NCBI RefSeq assembly: GCF_030013595.1
Contig: NZ_CP122768.1
From: Escherichia coli
Lineage (GTDB): Bacteria > Pseudomonadota > Gammaproteobacteria > Enterobacterales > Enterobacteriaceae
Reading direction: 5' to 3' (one strand)
Length of the DNA: 64,000 nt
Below, piece after piece: positions 454 to 37,041 of this stretch. The notes below the pieces were generated by a model. That model searched no databases. It was not told the origin of the DNA and worked only from the letters and a program-made list of their open reading frames with translations. Numbering within the stretch: the first letter of the stretch is position 1; each line of letters opens with the position of its first letter. The translations under genes were made by a program, and so were the position numbers.

Positions 454-528
<75 letters not shown>

Positions 529-531
529 ATA

Positions 532-607
<76 letters not shown>

Positions 608-609
608 AC

Positions 610-686
610 TGGACCGCCACCGGGGACTCGAACCTCGCACACTCAACTTAAAGGGTTGACGCTCTTTCCCGATGAGCTAGTGGCGG
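610..686 (-). tRNA. atypical tRNA-like gene, apparent anticodon UUU (Lys) or degenerate Arg-like
   Basis: acceptor CCGCCAC/GTGGCGG, T-loop TTCGAGT and 3' CCA are present, but the anticodon loop is CCTTTAA (C at position 33) and the T-stem has one A-C mismatch. Confidence 0.5.
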
Positions 687-687
687 T

Positions 688-763
688 TGGTGGCCCTTGC
701 TGGATTTGAACCAGCGACCTGGCGATTATGAGTCGCTCGCTCTCACCACTGAGCTAAAGGGCC
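688..763 (-). tRNA. tRNA-Ile2/Met, anticodon CAU (ileX/ileZ-like)
   Basis: 76-nt cloverleaf: acceptor GGCCCTT/AAGGGCC, anticodon loop CTCATAA, 3' CCA; close to E. coli ileX as recalled. Confidence 0.8.
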
Positions 764-4108: not shown

Positions 4109-4264
4109 TTACTCCTCAGGTTCGTAAGCTGTGAAGACAGCGACCTCCGTCTGGCCGGTTCGGATTCGTACCTCGCAGAGGTCTTTCCTCGTTACCAGTG
4201 CCGTCACTATGACGGTTAAACAGATGACGATCAGGGCGATTAACATCGCCTTTTGCTGCTTCAT
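4109..4264 (-). CDS. hokD: Hok/Gef-family type I toxin (HokD/RelF-like), 51 aa
   Basis: hand translation gives MKQQKAMLIALIVICLTVIVTALVTRKDLCEVRIRTGQTEVAVFTAYEPEE; below the 60-aa cutoff of the ORF track. Confidence 0.85.
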   Translation of the reverse strand: MKQQKAMLIALIVICLTVIVTALVTRKDLCEVRIRTGQTEVAVFTAYEPEE

Positions 4265-4474
4265 AGCCTGCTTCTCCTTGACCTTTCGGTCCGTAAGAGG
4301 CTAATCTCTATGTGTCGCATAGATATGGCCTCAGATTAATGTTAAGCGTCTTGCAGGACGCGTAATGTTAACTGGGGCTTTTCTCTATCTGCCTTTTGGT
4401 GTTCATGCCTGAGGCAGATAGCCTCAAGCACCCGCAGCAATTCTACTTAACTCTCCTTTTCCCGCAAACCGTTT

Positions 4475-9166: not shown

Positions 9167-9689
9167 ACGAACCCCTGGCAGACATTTGTTTATCTGCAAA
9201 GTAATATTGGTATTGCTGACGATACGCGTGCTTGAAAGCAATAGCTTTTTCTATAAGCTCGTCAGTCTCACGTTCCACAACAGCTGGATCCGCAAAAAGC
9301 AGCCCGGACTCCACCACATCGCCATATTCTTTGTTTAACCCGGCGATCATGTACGTAATGCTTTTTCCGTCAGTAATTTCACAATACAACCTGAAATCGC
9401 TGATCCGGATAGCCTCCATAATTGCCGGAATCAGCGCCGTGAATTTTTCCCGCTTATCCCTGGTGTCGATAGCTTTCCAGCGTTCGAATATCTTCACCCG
9501 GTTAACGCCCAGCGCCCGTTGATCAACCGCGCCATCATCAAACGTGACGCGTTGAACATCGATGTTCGGGCGTTCTTTCAGAGCCCAGAAGGCTTCCGTG
9601 ATTAATATCGTCGCCTGCTCCTGTGTCATTCCTGGTCGGCACACCCAGGCATCCAGAGCCTCACAAACCTGTTCAGGGGTGATTTTCAT
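9138..9689 (-). CDS. early-region protein in the cII position (YdaT-like?), 183 aa
   Basis: ORF between the cro-like gene and the O-like gene; weak recalled resemblance to YdaT-family proteins. Confidence 0.4.
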   Translation of the reverse strand: MKITPEQVCEALDAWVCRPGMTQEQATILITEAFWALKERPNIDVQRVTFDDGAVDQRALGVNRVKIFERWKAIDTRDKREKFTALIPAIMEAIRISDFRLYCEITDGKSITYMIAGLNKEYGDVVESGLLFADPAVVERETDELIEKAIAFKHAYRQQYQYYFADKQMSARGSYEYRCTTMG

Positions 9690-9900
9690 TGTTCAACCGC
9701 CCCGCCCGCTTTGCCTTACGATATTCGTCATAAACTTTGGGGTCGTACTGAAGTTCCCCGCCGGATGCCTCTTGCAGGCGCATCGCGCGACCTTCAGGAA
9801 CCAGTTCCCCCCATGCAGCAATGCTTGCCAGCCTAACTCCTGCGGCATTGGCAAGCTTTGTTTTGCTGCCAAAAAACGCTATAGCATCAATTTTCAACAT
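9673..9900 (-). CDS. dicC: DicC-like (Cro-type) repressor
   Basis: 75-aa protein close to DicC as recalled (…FGSKTKLA…AAG…LVPEGRAMRLQEASGGELQYDPKVYDEY…); divergent from dicA. Confidence 0.75.
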   Translation of the reverse strand: MLKIDAIAFFGSKTKLANAAGVRLASIAAWGELVPEGRAMRLQEASGGELQYDPKVYDEYRKAKRAGRLNNENHP

Positions 9901-9908
9901 ATCGAGCT

Positions 9909-9926
9909 CCTTAGATTTTCCTAAGG
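9909..9926. promoter_or_regulatory. palindromic operator CCTTAGATTTTCCTAAGG in the dicC-dicA intergenic region
   Basis: perfect 18-bp inverted repeat between divergent repressor genes; related CTTAGG half-sites at 9945-9975 and 10457-10509. Confidence 0.5.
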
Positions 9927-9976
9927 AAACTAGATCGTAGAGAAACCTAAGTCAAGAAAAATTAGAATTCCCTAAT

Positions 9977-10384
9977 ATGAAAAACGAAACCTTCGGTGCT
10001 CGCCTCTTACATAGGCGTAAAAAATTAAAACTGTCTCAGGCCGCATTAGGTAAGCTGGTCAAAGTGGCTCACGTAACAATTTCTCAATGGGAAAGAGATG
10101 AAACACAGCCGGCGGGGAAAAGATTATTCGCACTGAGCCAAGCGCTTCAGTGCTCACCGACTTGGCTTCTTTTTGGGGATGAAGATAAACAACCAGGCGA
10201 ACCGATCCCGGATAATCAGCCAGCCATTCTGACAGAAGATCAAAAAGAGTTACTTCAACTGTTCGACGCACTGCCTGAGTCAGAGCAAAAGGCCCTGTTG
10301 TCAGAGATGCGTGCTCGAGTTGAAAATTTCAACAAACTTTTTGAAGAACTACTCAAAGCTCGCAAAAGAAGCGCAAACAAATAA
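9977..10384 (+). CDS. dicA: DicA-like HTH (XRE family) repressor
   Basis: 135-aa protein close to DicA as recalled (…SQWER…FALS…LQCSPTW…FGDEDKQP…NFNKLFEELLKAR…). Confidence 0.8.
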   Translation: MKNETFGARLLHRRKKLKLSQAALGKLVKVAHVTISQWERDETQPAGKRLFALSQALQCSPTWLLFGDEDKQPGEPIPDNQPAILTEDQKELLQLFDALPESEQKALLSEMRARVENFNKLFEELLKARKRSANK

Positions 10385-10586
10385 TCCCCTTTTTTCTCCA
10401 CACCCTGTAATAAAAAGCACAAACTTTCAAACACTTGTGTTTTTTACATCAAAAAACTTAGGTTTTTCTACATAAAAATCTTGACCACCAGCCTTAGGTT
10501 ATTCTAAATTTCATTCATCAAGACACCGCACGGTGTTCTCAGCAAACAGTTCCGCCACCCCGGCGTTAAGGGGAAATGAGGTCAAC

Positions 10587-10739
10587 ATGGATACTATCGA
10601 TCTTGGCAACAACGAATCTCTGGTATACGGCGTGTTTCCCAACCAGGACGGCACATTCACCGCGATGACGTATACCAAAAGCAAAACGTTTAAAACCGAA
10701 ACTGGCGCTCGTCGCTGGTTAGCCAGAAACACTGACTGA
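10587..10739 (+). CDS. ydfA: YdfA-like protein (DUF1391)
   Basis: MDTIDLGNNESLVYGVFPNQDGTFTAMTYTKSKTFKTE… matches YdfA of Qin as recalled; first gene of the dicB operon. Confidence 0.7.
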   Translation: MDTIDLGNNESLVYGVFPNQDGTFTAMTYTKSKTFKTETGARRWLARNTD

Positions 10740-10750
10740 TGAGGCTGACG

Positions 10751-11389
10751 ATGGAATTTAAAGATTTACCAATATCAATACAGGAAATGGCCGCTGATGT
10801 GATTCGCTCGCAACTGGCGCGGAACCCAATGATATTAGTAGATAAAGTGTTCATCAGAAATTTATCAAATCATGTCCGCAATTCTTTTACCGGACTGTAT
10901 TCATATTCGTTCACAAACAATCATTGTGTAGAAAATAAAGCAAAGCCCATTGCAGAAACGATAACGCAAAACATCAATACGAAACAAACCGAAGAAGAAA
11001 TTGACCAGTTTACCCGTGATGCTGGCTTAAAATGCAGGAAAGAAAAATCGCCATATGCGGGAAATATGTTTGTTTATGACAACCTTATCCGAATTCGTGG
11101 CGAAATTCCGACTGAATACCTGGCAAGAATTCACCAGGCATTACTTAAAAATCTGGAAACGGAAGTATTTGATGGCAATACCAACGGCTCCTTCGTGGTG
11201 TCAACTCTCGCAAAAGAGTGGGATACAGATAATCGCTGGAATGTTGCTACATGGTTATTCAGCAACAAAGCTGCTGCCCTGGAAGCTGCGGCCTGTATTT
11301 GCGACCTGCTAAGGACAGACCGCAAATACAACCTGGATGTGTATAGCTATATTTATGCTGAACACTATCCGCTATGGATTAACTGGTAA
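10751..11389 (+). CDS. hypothetical protein, about 212 aa, no recognisable domain
   Basis: AT-rich ORF; GAGG Shine-Dalgarno before the second ATG; occupies the ydfB/ydfC position. Confidence 0.55.
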   Translation: MEFKDLPISIQEMAADVIRSQLARNPMILVDKVFIRNLSNHVRNSFTGLYSYSFTNNHCVENKAKPIAETITQNINTKQTEEEIDQFTRDAGLKCRKEKSPYAGNMFVYDNLIRIRGEIPTEYLARIHQALLKNLETEVFDGNTNGSFVVSTLAKEWDTDNRWNVATWLFSNKAAALEAAACICDLLRTDRKYNLDVYSYIYAEHYPLWINW

Positions 11390-11599
11390 TTACAAAGCTG
11401 TACCAGCAGGGCCACGGCGACCAGCGCCACGATTGTAATCAATGATGCCATTATAAAGCGCATTATTTAATTTATCGTCGAATGCCGATTCTGTGAGCCC
11501 TAGATCTGAATGAGTTTTTAATAACCCTGATTGCCTGAGTTGATTAACCAGGCATTCAATCTGTTTTTCAATAAGCGGATGTATTGGCTTGTTTGGCAT
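11390..11599 (-). CDS. hypothetical small protein, 69 aa (MPNKPIHPLIEKQIECLVNQL…)
   Basis: GGAGG Shine-Dalgarno 4 nt before the ATG; stop codon abuts the stop of the convergent 212-aa gene. Confidence 0.5.
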   Translation of the reverse strand: MPNKPIHPLIEKQIECLVNQLRQSGLLKTHSDLGLTESAFDDKLNNALYNGIIDYNRGAGRRGPAGTAL

Positions 11600-11924
11600 T
11601 TTATCCTCCATTGAAGTTACTGGTTGAGAATGGAGACCACACGTGACAGCGTGTTGTCGTGCACCGGACACGGATAAGAATCCGGCACTGACAGTTTACT
11701 GAAAGGATATATCCCTGAAAAGTCAGGGCATAACGCGAAAGCGCACGGCGGAGGTGTCTTTTCCTTAGAAGGCTTGTCGTTAGATTTCTTCGATTGTGCG
11801 CTTCCGGTTGTAGCACTCCGCGAAATGGCGCGGCGGTAAGTATGGCGGGGTTATTCCTTCCCCGTTGAGGACACCGGGTTGTCAGGTTGACCATACGCTT
11901 AAGTGACAACCCCGCTGCAACAAC

Positions 11925-11988
11925 CCATGTTGATTACCTTTTGGTGGGTATCCGTTTTTTGTTTTCCCTTGTGATACCCGCCCTTTTT
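11925..11988 (+). ncRNA. dicF: DicF-like small RNA (divergent)
   Basis: upstream of dicB; TTTGGTGGGTATC…GATACCCGCCC hairpin followed by TTTTT resembles the recalled DicF 3' end; boundaries approximate. Confidence 0.4.
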
Positions 11989-12173
11989 AAAGTGAATTTT
12001 GTGATGCGGTGAATGCGGCTCAGCGCACGCGGAACAGTTAAAAAAGTGATCGGTACTCTGTATTTGTTTTATGGAGTTGGTTTCCCTGTATTCCGGCGTT
12101 AATTGTTAACTGGTTAACGTCACCTGGAGGCACCAGGCACCGCATCACAAAATTCATTGTTGAGGACGCGATA

Positions 12174-12362
12174 ATGGAAACGTTATTACCAAACGTCAAT
12201 ACGTCTGAAGGTTGTTTTGAAATTGGTGTCAGAATCAGTAACCCTGTATTTACTGAAGATGCCATTAATAAGAGAAAACACGAACGGGAGCTATTAAATC
12301 AAATATGCATTGTTTCAATGCTGGCCCGTTTACGCCTGATGCAAAAAGGACGCTGCCAATGA
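12174..12362 (+). CDS. dicB: cell-division inhibitor DicB
   Basis: 62-aa protein METLLPNVNTSEGCFEIGV…ICIVSMLARLRLM… close to K-12 DicB as recalled. Confidence 0.85.
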   Translation: METLLPNVNTSEGCFEIGVRISNPVFTEDAINKRKHERELLNQICIVSMLARLRLMQKGRCQ

Positions 12363-12562
12363 ATACAGCATTTGCACTCGTTCTGACAGTTTTTCTTAAT
12401 ACAGGCGAACCAGTCGATCTTGTTATTGGTATACATGACTCAATGAAAGAATGCATGGCTGCCGCAGCGGAACAGAAAATTCCCGGCAACTGTTATCCGG
12501 TTGATAAAGTTATTCGCATGGACAATAACGAAATCCCGGCAGGACTTAAAACAGCACCGTAA
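12359..12562 (+). CDS. ydfD: YdfD-like small protein
   Basis: MNTAFALVLTVFL…AAAEQKIPGNCYPVDKVI… resembles YdfD; ATG overlaps the dicB stop. Confidence 0.6.
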   Translation: MNTAFALVLTVFLNTGEPVDLVIGIHDSMKECMAAAAEQKIPGNCYPVDKVIRMDNNEIPAGLKTAP

Positions 12563-12639
12563 TTAATATCCGGTTTCATTTTTATATGCCAGCAATGGCA
12601 GGGATTTGTTCACCCTAAAAATAGTTACGAGGTTTATCA

Positions 12640-15102
12640 ATGAGCGCTGATAAAGAAGAAATTGCACTATATTACGAAGCCAAAAATGACAAAGTCAGAA
12701 AACGCCTTGGGATTAAAGGCGGTTTTTACTGGCGCACAGCAAAAAAATTATCGATTGCAATATCACGCGGTGTTGTCGCAATGGACGATGCCGGATTTGA
12801 CGAAGAGGATTTTAAAAAACCTGTTCGCGTCCATTTACCCGTTGTGAATGACCTTCCTCCGGAAGGCGTGTTTGATACCGAATTCTGCAACCGATACGAA
12901 AAAGGCGGGGAAGATGGTATCACAATGGTACTTATCGCGCCCTCTGTTCAGGACAAACCAGCCAGCACTGACAATACCAACGTCAACGGTGAAGACATGA
13001 CTGAGATTGAGGAGAATATGCTCCTGCCAGTTTCAGGTCAGATTCTGCCTGTTCGATGGCTGGCGCAACACAACAGCGAAAAACCGATCACGCACGTTTC
13101 GCGGGACGAACTGCGCGCATTACATAACGCACAGGATGAAAAACTTCCCGCCGTTACCGCGCTGGCCATCTCAAATAAAGCAGCGCAACTCGAACCACTG
13201 GAAATTCGCGATCTCCACAAACTGGTACGCGACACTGACAAAGTTTTCCCTAATCCTGGTAATTCAGACCTGGGACTGATGACCGCTTTTTTCGAAGCAT
13301 ACCTGGGCGCTAACTACACCGATCGCGGTCTGCTTACAAAAGAGTGGATGAAGGGAAATCGTGTTTCACGTATCACCCGCACGGCTTCCGGCGCTAATGC
13401 TGGCGGCGGGAACAAAACCGATCGCAATCCGAATTTAGTACACACCTTCGATACGCTGGATGTGGAGATTGCAGCAGCCACACTTCCGATGGATTTTAAT
13501 ATTTATGAAATTCCGGGCAGCGTTTATCGTCGCGCAAAAGAAGTCGTCCGGAAGAAAGAAAGTCCGTTCAAAGAATGGTCCGCAGCACTTCGCGCAATCC
13601 CGGGTATCCTGGATTATTCCCGTGCCGCTATTTTTGCACTTATCCGGAGCGCCCACCCTGAACTTTACCTCTACAGGGTACGCCTTCAGGTGTATATCAA
13701 CGCCCACTTAACGGAGACTGATCACGAGAATCCTACCGAGGAAACTCTCGCTGCTGCACGACATACACCGGAAAAAGATATCCTGGAAGAAGTTAACCGC
13801 GAACTGGCTGCTGCTAAACACGAAACAGAAGAAGAAAAAAATAATGAGGAAAAATCACAACCGTCTGACGCAATGGCAGATGAACAGGCAACGACTGAAA
13901 CAATGGAGCCGGATACAACTGAACATCGCCAGGACACGCAATCGCTGGATACTCAGGCGCAGATAGATCCGGTTAATCAGGTAAAAGTTACCGCTGACGA
14001 AGTAAACAAAATTATGCAGGCAGCCAATATCAACCAGCCTGACGCCAATCAGTTGCTTGCTGTATCACGTGGTGAATTTGTTGCAGGGATTAGCGACCCG
14101 AATGATCCGAAATGGGTGAAGGGGATTGAAACCCGCGATTCAGTGAATCAGAACCAGCAAGAAATGGAACAGAACGACCAGAAAGCGGAAAAAAACAGCC
14201 CAAATGCGTTACAAAACGAGCCAGAAACGAAACAACCTGAGCCAGTAGCGCAACAGGAATCGGAAAAAGTCTGCACCGCCTGCGGTCAGAGCGGTGGCGG
14301 CAGCTGCCCTGATTGTGGCGCGGTGATGGGCGACGCAACATACCAGGAAACATTCGATGAAGAGAATCAGGTTGAAGTTCAGGAAAATGATCCGGAGGAA
14401 ATGGAAGGCGCTGAACATCCACACAAGGAGAATGCTGGCAGCGCTCAGGACCACGCCAGCGATAATGAAACTGGCGAGACGGCAGATCCCTTAATTGCGG
14501 TGAACGGTCATCACGTTATCACATCCACCAGCAGAGTGTGGTACCACCTGATGATCGACCTTGAAACAATGGGAACCAACACCAATGCGCCCATCGTGGT
14601 TATTGGTGCGGTTTTCTTCGACCCACAAACAGGGGAAATCGGGCCAGTATTTTATATCGTTATCAGTCTGACTGACGCAATGAATACAGGGGCTGTTCCT
14701 GACGGTGGAACCATCGAATGGTGGCTGAAGCAGTCCAGTGAAGCCAGAGCTGCCATTTTAACAGACCAGGTAAAACTGAAGGATGCCCTTTCGCGGTTTC
14801 GGGAGTTCATCAACGAATACTCAGATGAAAAATTCGTTCAGGTATGGGGTAATGGTGCAACTTTCGATAACGCAATTTTGCGCACCTCATACGAACGTCT
14901 GGACATCCCCTGCCCGTGGCGCTACTACAACGATCGCGATGTACGCACAATCGTTGAGCTGGGAAAAACCATCGGTTTTGATGCCAGAACAGCTATCCCG
15001 TTCGAAGGTGTACCCCACAATGCACTGGATGATGCCCGTCACCAGGCGAAATACGTTTCAGTAATCTGGCAAAAACTGATCCCGAGTCAGGCTGATTTTT
15101 AA
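12640..15102 (+). CDS. prophage exonuclease (YdfE/exodeoxyribonuclease VIII-like), 820 aa, with C-terminal DnaQ-like DEDDh 3'-5' exonuclease domain
   Basis: C-terminus has Exo I (MIDLETMG), Exo II (WGNGATFD) and Exo III (HNALDDARH) motifs; acidic low-complexity linker and C-x2-C-x9-C-x2-C motif; sits upstream of xis-int. Confidence 0.7.
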   Translation: MSADKEEIALYYEAKNDKVRKRLGIKGGFYWRTAKKLSIAISRGVVAMDDAGFDEEDFKKPVRVHLPVVNDLPPEGVFDTEFCNRYEKGGEDGITMVLIAPSVQDKPASTDNTNVNGEDMTEIEENMLLPVSGQILPVRWLAQHNSEKPITHVSRDELRALHNAQDEKLPAVTALAISNKAAQLEPLEIRDLHKLVRDTDKVFPNPGNSDLGLMTAFFEAYLGANYTDRGLLTKEWMKGNRVSRITRTASGANAGGGNKTDRNPNLVHTFDTLDVEIAAATLPMDFNIYEIPGSVYRRAKEVVRKKESPFKEWSAALRAIPGILDYSRAAIFALIRSAHPELYLYRVRLQVYINAHLTETDHENPTEETLAAARHTPEKDILEEVNRELAAAKHETEEEKNNEEKSQPSDAMADEQATTETMEPDTTEHRQDTQSLDTQAQIDPVNQVKVTADEVNKIMQAANINQPDANQLLAVSRGEFVAGISDPNDPKWVKGIETRDSVNQNQQEMEQNDQKAEKNSPNALQNEPETKQPEPVAQQESEKVCTACGQSGGGSCPDCGAVMGDATYQETFDEENQVEVQENDPEEMEGAEHPHKENAGSAQDHASDNETGETADPLIAVNGHHVITSTSRVWYHLMIDLETMGTNTNAPIVVIGAVFFDPQTGEIGPVFYIVISLTDAMNTGAVPDGGTIEWWLKQSSEARAAILTDQVKLKDALSRFREFINEYSDEKFVQVWGNGATFDNAILRTSYERLDIPCPWRYYNDRDVRTIVELGKTIGFDARTAIPFEGVPHNALDDARHQAKYVSVIWQKLIPSQADF

Positions 15103-34236: not shown

Positions 34237-34507
34237 CGTGACCCCCTTAAATTTATTAACCAATTGTTAATTAATGGTTGTTAACATAGCTCTTAATTAA
34301 CAACAGGTTACAGCAATGAAAATGTTCTTCGCTATTGAGAATAACATGAATGGTGCATTGGTCATACCAAAATTGATGTTAATCAAGTTTTGTTGCTGAA
34401 AAGATAGGCGACTTTACCGGGCGAGATCAAAAAACAGAGTTTGTTGTTTATTATTTGAGCTAATTTATGAGAGTGGTATAGCGTGAGGGGTGTATGGAGG
34501 ACGTTCG

Positions 34508-34630
<123 letters not shown>

Positions 34631-34635
34631 GGCAT

Positions 34636-35178
34636 TTACCCGAGGGTTTTGAACGCTTTAATGCGCTGCAAATGCGGGGAGATATTCTTGAATTTGTGCG
34701 TCTGCTCTTCGTCCCAGACAATCTCGTAATAATGATGCAGCTCTTCAGATGTCCGCTGGCTGTTAAGCGCTTCATCATTACGCGACAAAATCACCAGGCA
34801 ACGATCGCGATTCTTCTCACGGAAGTTGGTCACACACTTAGTGGCAATATCGGCATACTCTTCCGGGCGATCAATCTTGCCTTCCATGTTCTCATAAGGG
34901 AACAAATTAGGGTTGAAGATCACCTGGCGGATATCGCAAAGAAAACCAATCCGTTCCGCCCAGTATCCGCCCAGACCAACGCCGCAAATCAGCGGACGCT
35001 CGTCGACGTTCAGTTGCAACATTTTGTCCACTTCTTTGAGCAGATGCTGCATATCATGTTTCGGATGCCGCGTACTGTAGCTTATCAAGCGTACATCCGG
35101 GTCAATAAACTGCAATTGTAAGACTTTCTCGTGGTTACCCGGACTGTTAGAGTCAAAACCGTGTAAATAGATAATCAT
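34636..35178 (-). CDS. ycfP: UPF0227 esterase-like protein YcfP
   Basis: start set at [10 protein letters not shown] (180 aa); K-12 synteny. Confidence 0.85.
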
Positions 35179-35200
35179 CGCTTCCTCACATAAGCCAGGG

Positions 35201-37041
<1,841 letters not shown>

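Follow-up and report, generated by a model that had tools for sequence, protein, structure and literature searches.

A convergent, co-inherited pair of prophage genes of the phrog_2151 and phrog_4274 families in the early operon of dicB-type Escherichia coli prophages

Results

The region studied within the window (i.e., the whole 64,000-nt stretch of E. coli DNA analyzed here) was found to represent the early-left (dicB-type) operon of a lambdoid prophage. Genes were named using the RefSeq annotation of L001, a locus 98.5% identical to the window. A Cro-like gene (9673-9900, minus strand) and a gene encoding a DicA/CI-like HTH protein (9977-10384, plus strand), both recognized from the list of open reading frames (ORFs) and the L001 annotation, are followed by a promoter-like site, TTGACC-18-TAAATT (10481-10510, plus strand), which was found by consensus scan only. 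This site occupies the position of K-12 dicBp, downstream of the dicA-like gene, and is a candidate equivalent of dicBp, the repressor-controlled early promoter from which ydfA and the gene that follows it would be transcribed. The first early-operon gene, ydfA (DUF1391; 10587-10739, plus strand; ORF and L001 annotation), ends 11 nt before the start of a gene encoding a 212-aa protein (10751-11389, plus strand), which faces a gene encoding a 69-aa protein (11390-11599, minus strand). Beyond this pair, a gene-free stretch of approximately 575 nt leads to dicB (12174-12362, plus strand; ORF and L001 annotation), a downstream gene of the same operon that encodes a cell-division inhibitor, and dicB is followed by a DUF1482 gene and a gene for a RecE-type exonuclease.

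An earlier, sequence-only reading of this DNA had described the pair as a 212-aa plus-strand gene and a 69-aa minus-strand gene with its own GGAGG ribosome-binding site, and the ORF list and the sequence agree with this description and its coordinates. The stop codons are directly adjacent, as that reading had noted for positions 11389 and 11390 (TAA at 11387-11389, TTA at 11390-11392), and no terminator was found between the two genes in a scan of this region of the window. The AT-richness that had been remarked on is mild, with a GC content of 0.37 to 0.47 across the pair.

Translation of the larger gene from the ATG at 10751, which has a GAGG Shine-Dalgarno sequence 6 nt upstream, yields 212 aa, and translation from an alternative ATG at 10739, which overlaps the ydfA stop codon, yields 216 aa; MEFKDL is the start of all homologues. 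The protein matched phrog_2151 over its full length (E = 3.2e-97, residues 1-212 on profile positions 1-212), and its homologues are named Ybl81 in some records. The 69-aa protein matched phrog_4274, also from end to end (E = 2e-41, residues 1-69 of 69). A search of 5.8 billion proteins returned approximately 130 clusters for the large protein, nearly all of the same length, and 35 to 50 clusters for the small protein, again nearly all of the same length; all of these clusters came from Escherichia or Salmonella, and hundreds of same-length homologues were found for each protein. Pairwise comparison with the O157:H7 copy by the Nei-Gojobori method gave dN/dS ratios of 0.28 for the large gene, 0.14 for the part encoding its C-terminal domain (C-domain), and 0.27 for the small gene (0.1 to 0.27 overall, with dS of 0.34 to 0.73). 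Judging from these sequence comparisons, both ORFs are under purifying selection (dN/dS 0.14 to 0.3). Taken together, the full-length PHROG matches, the hundreds of same-length homologues and the low dN/dS ratios show that neither ORF arose by chance and that both genes are real and selected.

Both genes are annotated merely as hypothetical. The RefSeq label of a pseudogene with a missing N-terminus, which is attached to the window-type large gene in L001 to L003, is an artefact; the ORF is intact, and the 516 bp accepted by PGAP start exactly at the end of a divergent N-terminal allele, so that the call can be traced to the polymorphic N-terminal module described below. No motif had been recognized in either protein from the sequence alone, and the database searches bear this out: no family was found for either protein in Pfam, NCBIfam or PADLOC (PADLOC-DB v2 at E <= 0.1), no match was found for either among PDB sequence profiles, and profile-HMM searches placed both only in PHROG families of unknown function, phrog_2151 and phrog_4274. 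No toxin or antitoxin domain was recognized in either protein by family profile or fold, and a literature search found no paper mentioning ybl81, the RefSeq accessions or the PHROG ids of the pair.

The large protein is modular, consisting of an N-terminal module (N-module), a disordered linker and the C-domain. In the AlphaFold2 model, which is of only moderate quality (mean pLDDT 60), these parts appear as an N-terminal two-helix hairpin (residues 1-55, pLDDT about 60-68), a disordered stretch (residues 55-100) and a beta-beta-alpha-beta-beta-alpha fold modelled over residues 101-190 (pLDDT 70-88). The conserved alpha/beta C-domain itself comprises approximately 110 aa (residues about 101-212, window about 11051-11389). 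No HTH was found in the E. coli 212-aa protein, either by family profiles or in the AlphaFold2 model. The small protein was modelled as a two-helix hairpin (helices 8-24 and 37-61, pLDDT 76), in which two amphipathic or soluble helices are followed by a basic tail. This C-terminal tail, [GH]-R-[RKS]-x-P-[AG]-G-x-x-L-COOH, is conserved and predicted to be disordered, a combination that would be typical of a partner-binding or degradation tag. Structure searches with Foldseek found no fold relatives, as the search against AFDB50 returned only the large protein's own family and the search of the 69-aa hairpin against the PDB returned nothing below an E value of 3. A paralogous relationship between the 69-aa protein and the N-module of the large protein was rejected (hhalign probability 0.2%).

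The GGAGG of the small gene (minus strand; plus-strand CCTCC at 11605-11609) precedes its ATG by 5 nt. It forms part of a leader delimited from the sequence (11600-11640, minus strand), which also holds an inverted repeat, CUCCAU/AUGGAG (11606-11637, minus strand), that is retained in the leaders of both E. coli and Salmonella and could sequester the Shine-Dalgarno sequence. The corresponding hairpin was predicted in four of five homologous leaders, but it did no better than shuffled sequences and is noted here only as a side observation. A scan found no sigma-70 promoter close to the small gene, and inspection by eye identified only weak hexamers and no LexA box. The only minus-strand sigma-70-like site near the pair, TTGACG-17-CATTAT (12171-12199, minus strand), lies inside the start of dicB, 570 nt upstream of the small gene; a transcript from this site would reach the small gene and would be antisense to the dicB leader as well as to the hairpin at the DicF position and the RNA element, both of which are described below.

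Further analysis of the large gene showed that the N-module (MEFKDLP...NVR.AF.GLY; two helices, approximately 55 residues; window 10751-10915, plus strand, and also L005 2513-2887) is common to many proteins of 64 to 179 aa with unrelated C-termini, which belong to phrog_1363, phrog_6937 and phrog_9419 and are encoded in the same position after ydfA. This site is therefore a polymorphic locus with a constant head and a variable tail. The first 133 nt of the cassette used as query (window 10739-10871), which end at approximately residue 41 of the 212-aa protein and thus within the N-module, recur as a module of their own in about 850 other E. coli genomes, where they follow ydfA and lead into other C-termini. 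The N-module alleles of the window and O157 are only 47% identical, and the remainder of the protein is much closer.

A census of 5,426 complete E. coli genomes identified the part encoding the C-domain in 750 places in 599 genomes and the 69-aa gene in 743 places in 596 genomes, so that only about 7 of the 750 C-domain places do not have the small gene. The pair is hence carried by about 11% of complete E. coli genomes (approximately one in nine), mostly of EHEC serotypes, and most of the sampled EHEC strains of O157:H7, O145, O111, O103 and O26 carry it; it is absent from UTI89, the strain used in a paper on a cell-division screen. In a survey of 137 loci having the neighbouring RNA element in common, every small gene (19 of 19) was accompanied by the C-domain. 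One exception in the opposite direction was found in strain A19 (L006), where an intact 211-aa gene is present and the small gene is replaced by another convergent gene (L006 3179-3691), which encodes a 170-aa protein of phrog_1244 with a coiled coil and CxxC...CxxC motifs. A prophage can therefore carry the large gene without having the small one. Among the 50,697 deposited phage genomes, the small gene was absent from all and the large protein was matched only through its N-module, which suggests that the pair may sit mainly in defective prophages.

An exhaustive HMMER search of 1.84 billion cluster representatives found only two distant relatives of the C-domain (34-41% identity), both of which are Salmonella prophage proteins of 220 to 307 aa with other N-terminal parts. 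Some of the Salmonella large proteins carry a CII/XRE-like HTH (phrog_4836, E = 3e-8; phrog_4, E = 5e-11). Each Salmonella large gene is followed by a convergent gene encoding 64 to 69 aa, with 3' ends overlapping by 11 to 53 nt, and the small proteins encoded there are 41-54% identical to the 69-aa protein of the window; the 64-aa relative also matches phrog_4274 (E = 5e-9). The motifs EKQIEC..QL..SGLLK and F..KL and the C-terminal tail motif are common to the Salmonella and window small proteins, and the tail motif is thus kept at 41-54% overall identity despite its predicted disorder. The Salmonella copies lie directly after an int-repressor-cox immunity region and not after dicA-ydfA. Together, the Salmonella and E. 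coli loci show three architectures of the large protein, in which the same C-domain faces the same small gene. The separable 133-nt head and the Salmonella N-terminal variants place the recombination junctions inside the large gene, upstream of the C-domain, and none was found to separate the C-domain from the small gene. Together with the small protein, the C-domain represents one unit, inherited jointly across distant phages, although the tight linkage of adjacent genes could result partly from their physical proximity.

Comparison of related dicB-operon prophages showed that the presence of the pair is variable and that the slot in which it lies is combinatorial. In the 137 loci, which were collected as those sharing the downstream RNA element, ydfA, ydfB, ydfC, an N-module gene and the pair were found in all possible combinations within the stretch from the promoter to the RNA element. 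In the Qin prophage of K-12, ydfB and ydfC occupy the same slot of the dicBF operon, between ydfA and the DicF-precursor RNA region; like the pair, they are small accessory genes of unknown function, but they are both on the plus strand and are not homologous to it. The sequence-only reading had proposed that the pair replaces ydfB and ydfC. Both genes are indeed absent from the window, and tblastn searches found neither YdfB nor YdfC in pair-only loci such as L001 and L003; in L002 (strain PK8241), however, ydfB and a ydfC-like gene coexist with the pair and lie upstream of it (tblastn). The pair is therefore a cargo that is present or absent independently, rather than a substitute for ydfB and ydfC, and it is most likely one of the accessory cargos carried by a variable slot in the immunity-proximal early operon.

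Alignments and RNAalifold further identified a conserved structured RNA of the early-operon transcript immediately beyond the pair (11612-11925, plus strand, approximately 315 nt), which consists of a long stem (about 11736-11753 with 11788-11806) followed by a three-way junction (about 11806-11922). The element is better folded on the plus strand, with many G-U pairs that are valid solely there and some compensatory changes (RNAalifold and pair counts), and no Rfam family matched it. A 102-aa minus-strand ORF across the element was ruled out as a gene, as the indels among homologues are not multiples of three. The RNA element is more conserved in DNA than the proteins are, across E. coli, Salmonella and even phage P1, and its hosts include Qin-like prophages (K-12 among them), Salmonella int-cox prophages that do not have DicF, Stx phages and P1. 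In P1, the match begins 43 nt downstream of the -10 hexamer of P1ban, a promoter controlled by C1. The small gene invariably borders the element on its 5' side. Since K-12 and most other loci carry the element without the pair, it is part of the framework of the operon and not part of the cargo. The K-12 homologue lies between ydfC and dicF, just upstream of DicF, and overlaps the precursor of DicF that is generated by RNase III; processing by RNase III in this region of K-12 has been reported to generate a 190-nt DicF species (PMC10448788). The element may thus represent an uncatalogued leader or processing RNA of early operons.

The sequence-only reading had also assumed a DicF/dicB segment beyond the pair. 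A homologous segment with a hairpin and U-run is present at the position that DicF occupies in K-12 and O157 (11943-11988, plus strand; predicted fold -16.6 kcal/mol, z -3.9), but canonical DicF (Rfam RF00039) is not, since no match at E <= 1 was found in window 9500-13000, nor in L001 or L002; the K-12 and O157 loci (L017 and L004), used as positive controls, scored 75-77 bits. This hairpin may represent either an allele of DicF with a different seed or simply a terminator. A sub-threshold match to STnc100, a Salmonella sRNA family, was observed slightly downstream in the dicB leader (11995-12151, plus strand; 34.5 bits as compared to a gathering score of 47).

Discussion

A gene read against an early operon has a precedent in phage lambda, where the sequence record places sieB (34482-35036, plus strand) and N (35037-35438, minus strand) as convergent, abutting genes within the pL operon. 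Like the 69-aa gene, lambda and P22 sieB are read against a repressor-controlled early-left operon, have a stop codon that abuts that of an early gene, and lie between the immunity region and a kil-type division inhibitor. This precedent indicates that a counter-transcribed gene at this position follows an established arrangement for functions that are expressed in the lysogen, and the significance that the sequence-only reading had attached to the layout is supported to that extent. For P22, Ranade and Poteete (1993) reportedly found that an antisense RNA released from the pL transcript by cleavage acts as a switch on sieB translation. SieB itself differs from the 69-aa protein in that it is a membrane protein, has 184 aa in the lambda record and is not known to require a partner gene; the 69-aa protein, in contrast, is soluble and helical, has no PHROG or Pfam link to SieB and is tied to the C-domain that faces it.

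Overall, we consider it possible, although somewhat short of probable, that the pair represents a conserved mobile accessory module of the pL-like (dicB) early operon of enterobacterial temperate prophages, in which the small protein is the cognate partner, i.e., an antagonist or a regulator, of the C-domain. The large gene, which lies closely behind ydfA, would be read with the operon and so should be made when the prophage is derepressed, and the C-domain would be the working part of its product, grafted onto different N-modules in different phages. Neither a spacer nor a terminator separates the small gene from the large gene, into which it is read head-on; the product of the small gene would be made from the opposite strand as long as the early operon remains silent, i.e., in the lysogen, and this helical hairpin with its conserved tail would bind the C-domain. 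Firing of the operon would then switch off the small gene through head-on transcription and antisense pairing, a type of shut-off that is known for sieB of P22 and lambda and its sas RNA. We infer the physical interaction of the two proteins, the reciprocal timing of their expression and any phenotype of the pair, and the fact that no promoter was identified for the small gene counts against its expression in the lysogen as proposed. The separation of the two genes in L006, the absence of the pair from the 50,697 deposited phage genomes and the moderate quality of the large protein's structural model also speak against this reading. A more ambitious version of this model, which appears doubtful at present, is that the pair forms a new convergent prophage switch, with an early effector and a lysogen-made inhibitor linked by head-on transcription beside an RNase III-processed leader RNA. 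In EHEC and Salmonella prophages, such a switch would govern takeover of the host, self-immunity or exclusion, and it would represent a "convergent" toxin/immunity-like or regulator/anti-regulator system that does not have relatives among known families.

Alternatively, the two genes could be independent, with the 69-aa gene being a sieB-like moron expressed in the lysogen and its co-occurrence with the C-domain resulting from adjacency and shared descent. Lambda N and sieB abut in an identical manner although they do not function as a pair, ydfB, ydfC and other genes are present or absent independently of one another in this highly mosaic slot, and L006 shows that the two genes are separable. 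On the other hand, the association holds at 34-54% identity, on another prophage backbone and across three N-terminal architectures, the junctions lie within the large gene and not at the boundary of the two genes, and only about 7 of 750 places do not have the small gene, all of which makes independence unlikely.

The proposal that the pair is moron cargo, such as a toxin/immunity, superinfection-exclusion or anti-phage module, holds with regard to the pair being an accessory two-gene unit in a mosaic slot. Its functional part fared less well, as no toxin, antitoxin or defence match was found and the genes are convergent rather than co-directional; nothing so far marks the pair as a toxin-antitoxin or anti-phage defence system. 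As a specific explanation, a toxin-antitoxin, abortive-infection or other anti-phage module would have the C-domain as toxic effector and the 69-aa protein as labile antitoxin or immunity factor. Type II toxin-antitoxin systems resemble the pair in being prophage-borne, co-inherited two-gene units with a small partner that, like many antitoxins, has a folded (here helical) core and a conserved disordered C-terminal tail, and the location in a prophage accessory slot beside host-directed genes such as dicB is compatible with such a role. Type II pairs are, however, normally co-directional operons, whereas these genes are convergent and do not form a co-directional autoregulated operon; the putative toxin would lie on the phage early promoter, within a repressor-controlled lytic operon, and in strain A19 the large gene persists without the small one. 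In addition, no PADLOC model, no Pfam or NCBIfam toxin or antitoxin family and no toxin fold was matched, and the C-domain is fused to a CII/XRE-type HTH in some of the Salmonella proteins, which points to a regulator more than to a toxin. We thus regard this explanation as quite unlikely.

That fusion raises a further alternative, in which the pair would act in the lysis-lysogeny decision: the C-domain would serve an early regulator as its domain for oligomerization or sensing, with the small protein acting as its modulator in an anti-repressor-like or CIII-like manner, or controlling the RNA element and thereby the downstream expression of dicB and recE. In phage 186, CII is encoded directly after cox, and the Salmonella large proteins resemble the CII-type regulators of this phage in being encoded directly after cox/apl and in carrying a CII/XRE-like HTH; the invariable position of the small gene at the 5' side of the RNA element could also be explained in this way. 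By contrast, the E. coli 212-aa protein does not have an HTH, HMM comparison found nothing in known CII proteins that corresponds to its C-domain, and K-12 and many phages carry the RNA element without the pair. A regulatory role of this type seems quite improbable.

It is very unlikely that the 69-aa ORF acts mainly through a convergent antisense transcript that damps the early operon, with the peptide being incidental: OOP/cII in lambda and sas/sieB are precedents, the pair shares with OOP/cII a short convergent transcript that runs up to the 3' end of an early gene without a terminator in between (a layout that suggests antisense and RNase III control), and transcripts from genes whose 3' ends abut or overlap without a terminator must themselves overlap, but here the convergent transcript encodes a conserved, selected protein, with amino-acid-level conservation in the face of synonymous divergence (dN/dS 0.1-0.27), with length, start and tail motif kept at 41-54% identity in Salmonella, and with a strong GGAGG Shine-Dalgarno sequence that is also kept.

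While the type of convergent layout was known from lambda N and sieB, the present data add a selected, co-inherited module that is absent from known families beyond PHROG 2151 and 4274. The operon in which it is located is also the source of the division inhibitors DicB and DicF, and the pair represents a cheap target for studying prophage control of early expression, host physiology or exclusion. The region from ydfA to the DicF-precursor RNA is now defined as a combinatorial cargo slot, and an uncatalogued structured RNA that is common to Qin-like, Salmonella and P1 phages has been flagged.

Other RNA features were observed outside the early operon. Four tRNA genes (Gly-TCC, Thr-TGT, Lys-TTT and Met-CAT) and a hok/sok-type sok RNA are located elsewhere in the prophage (window 454-763 and 4262-4433, minus strand). 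The SraB sRNA and the rne 5' UTR element, found at window 53564-53732 and 55593-55929, are host landmarks, and their presence shows that the right part of the window represents chromosomal backbone near rne.
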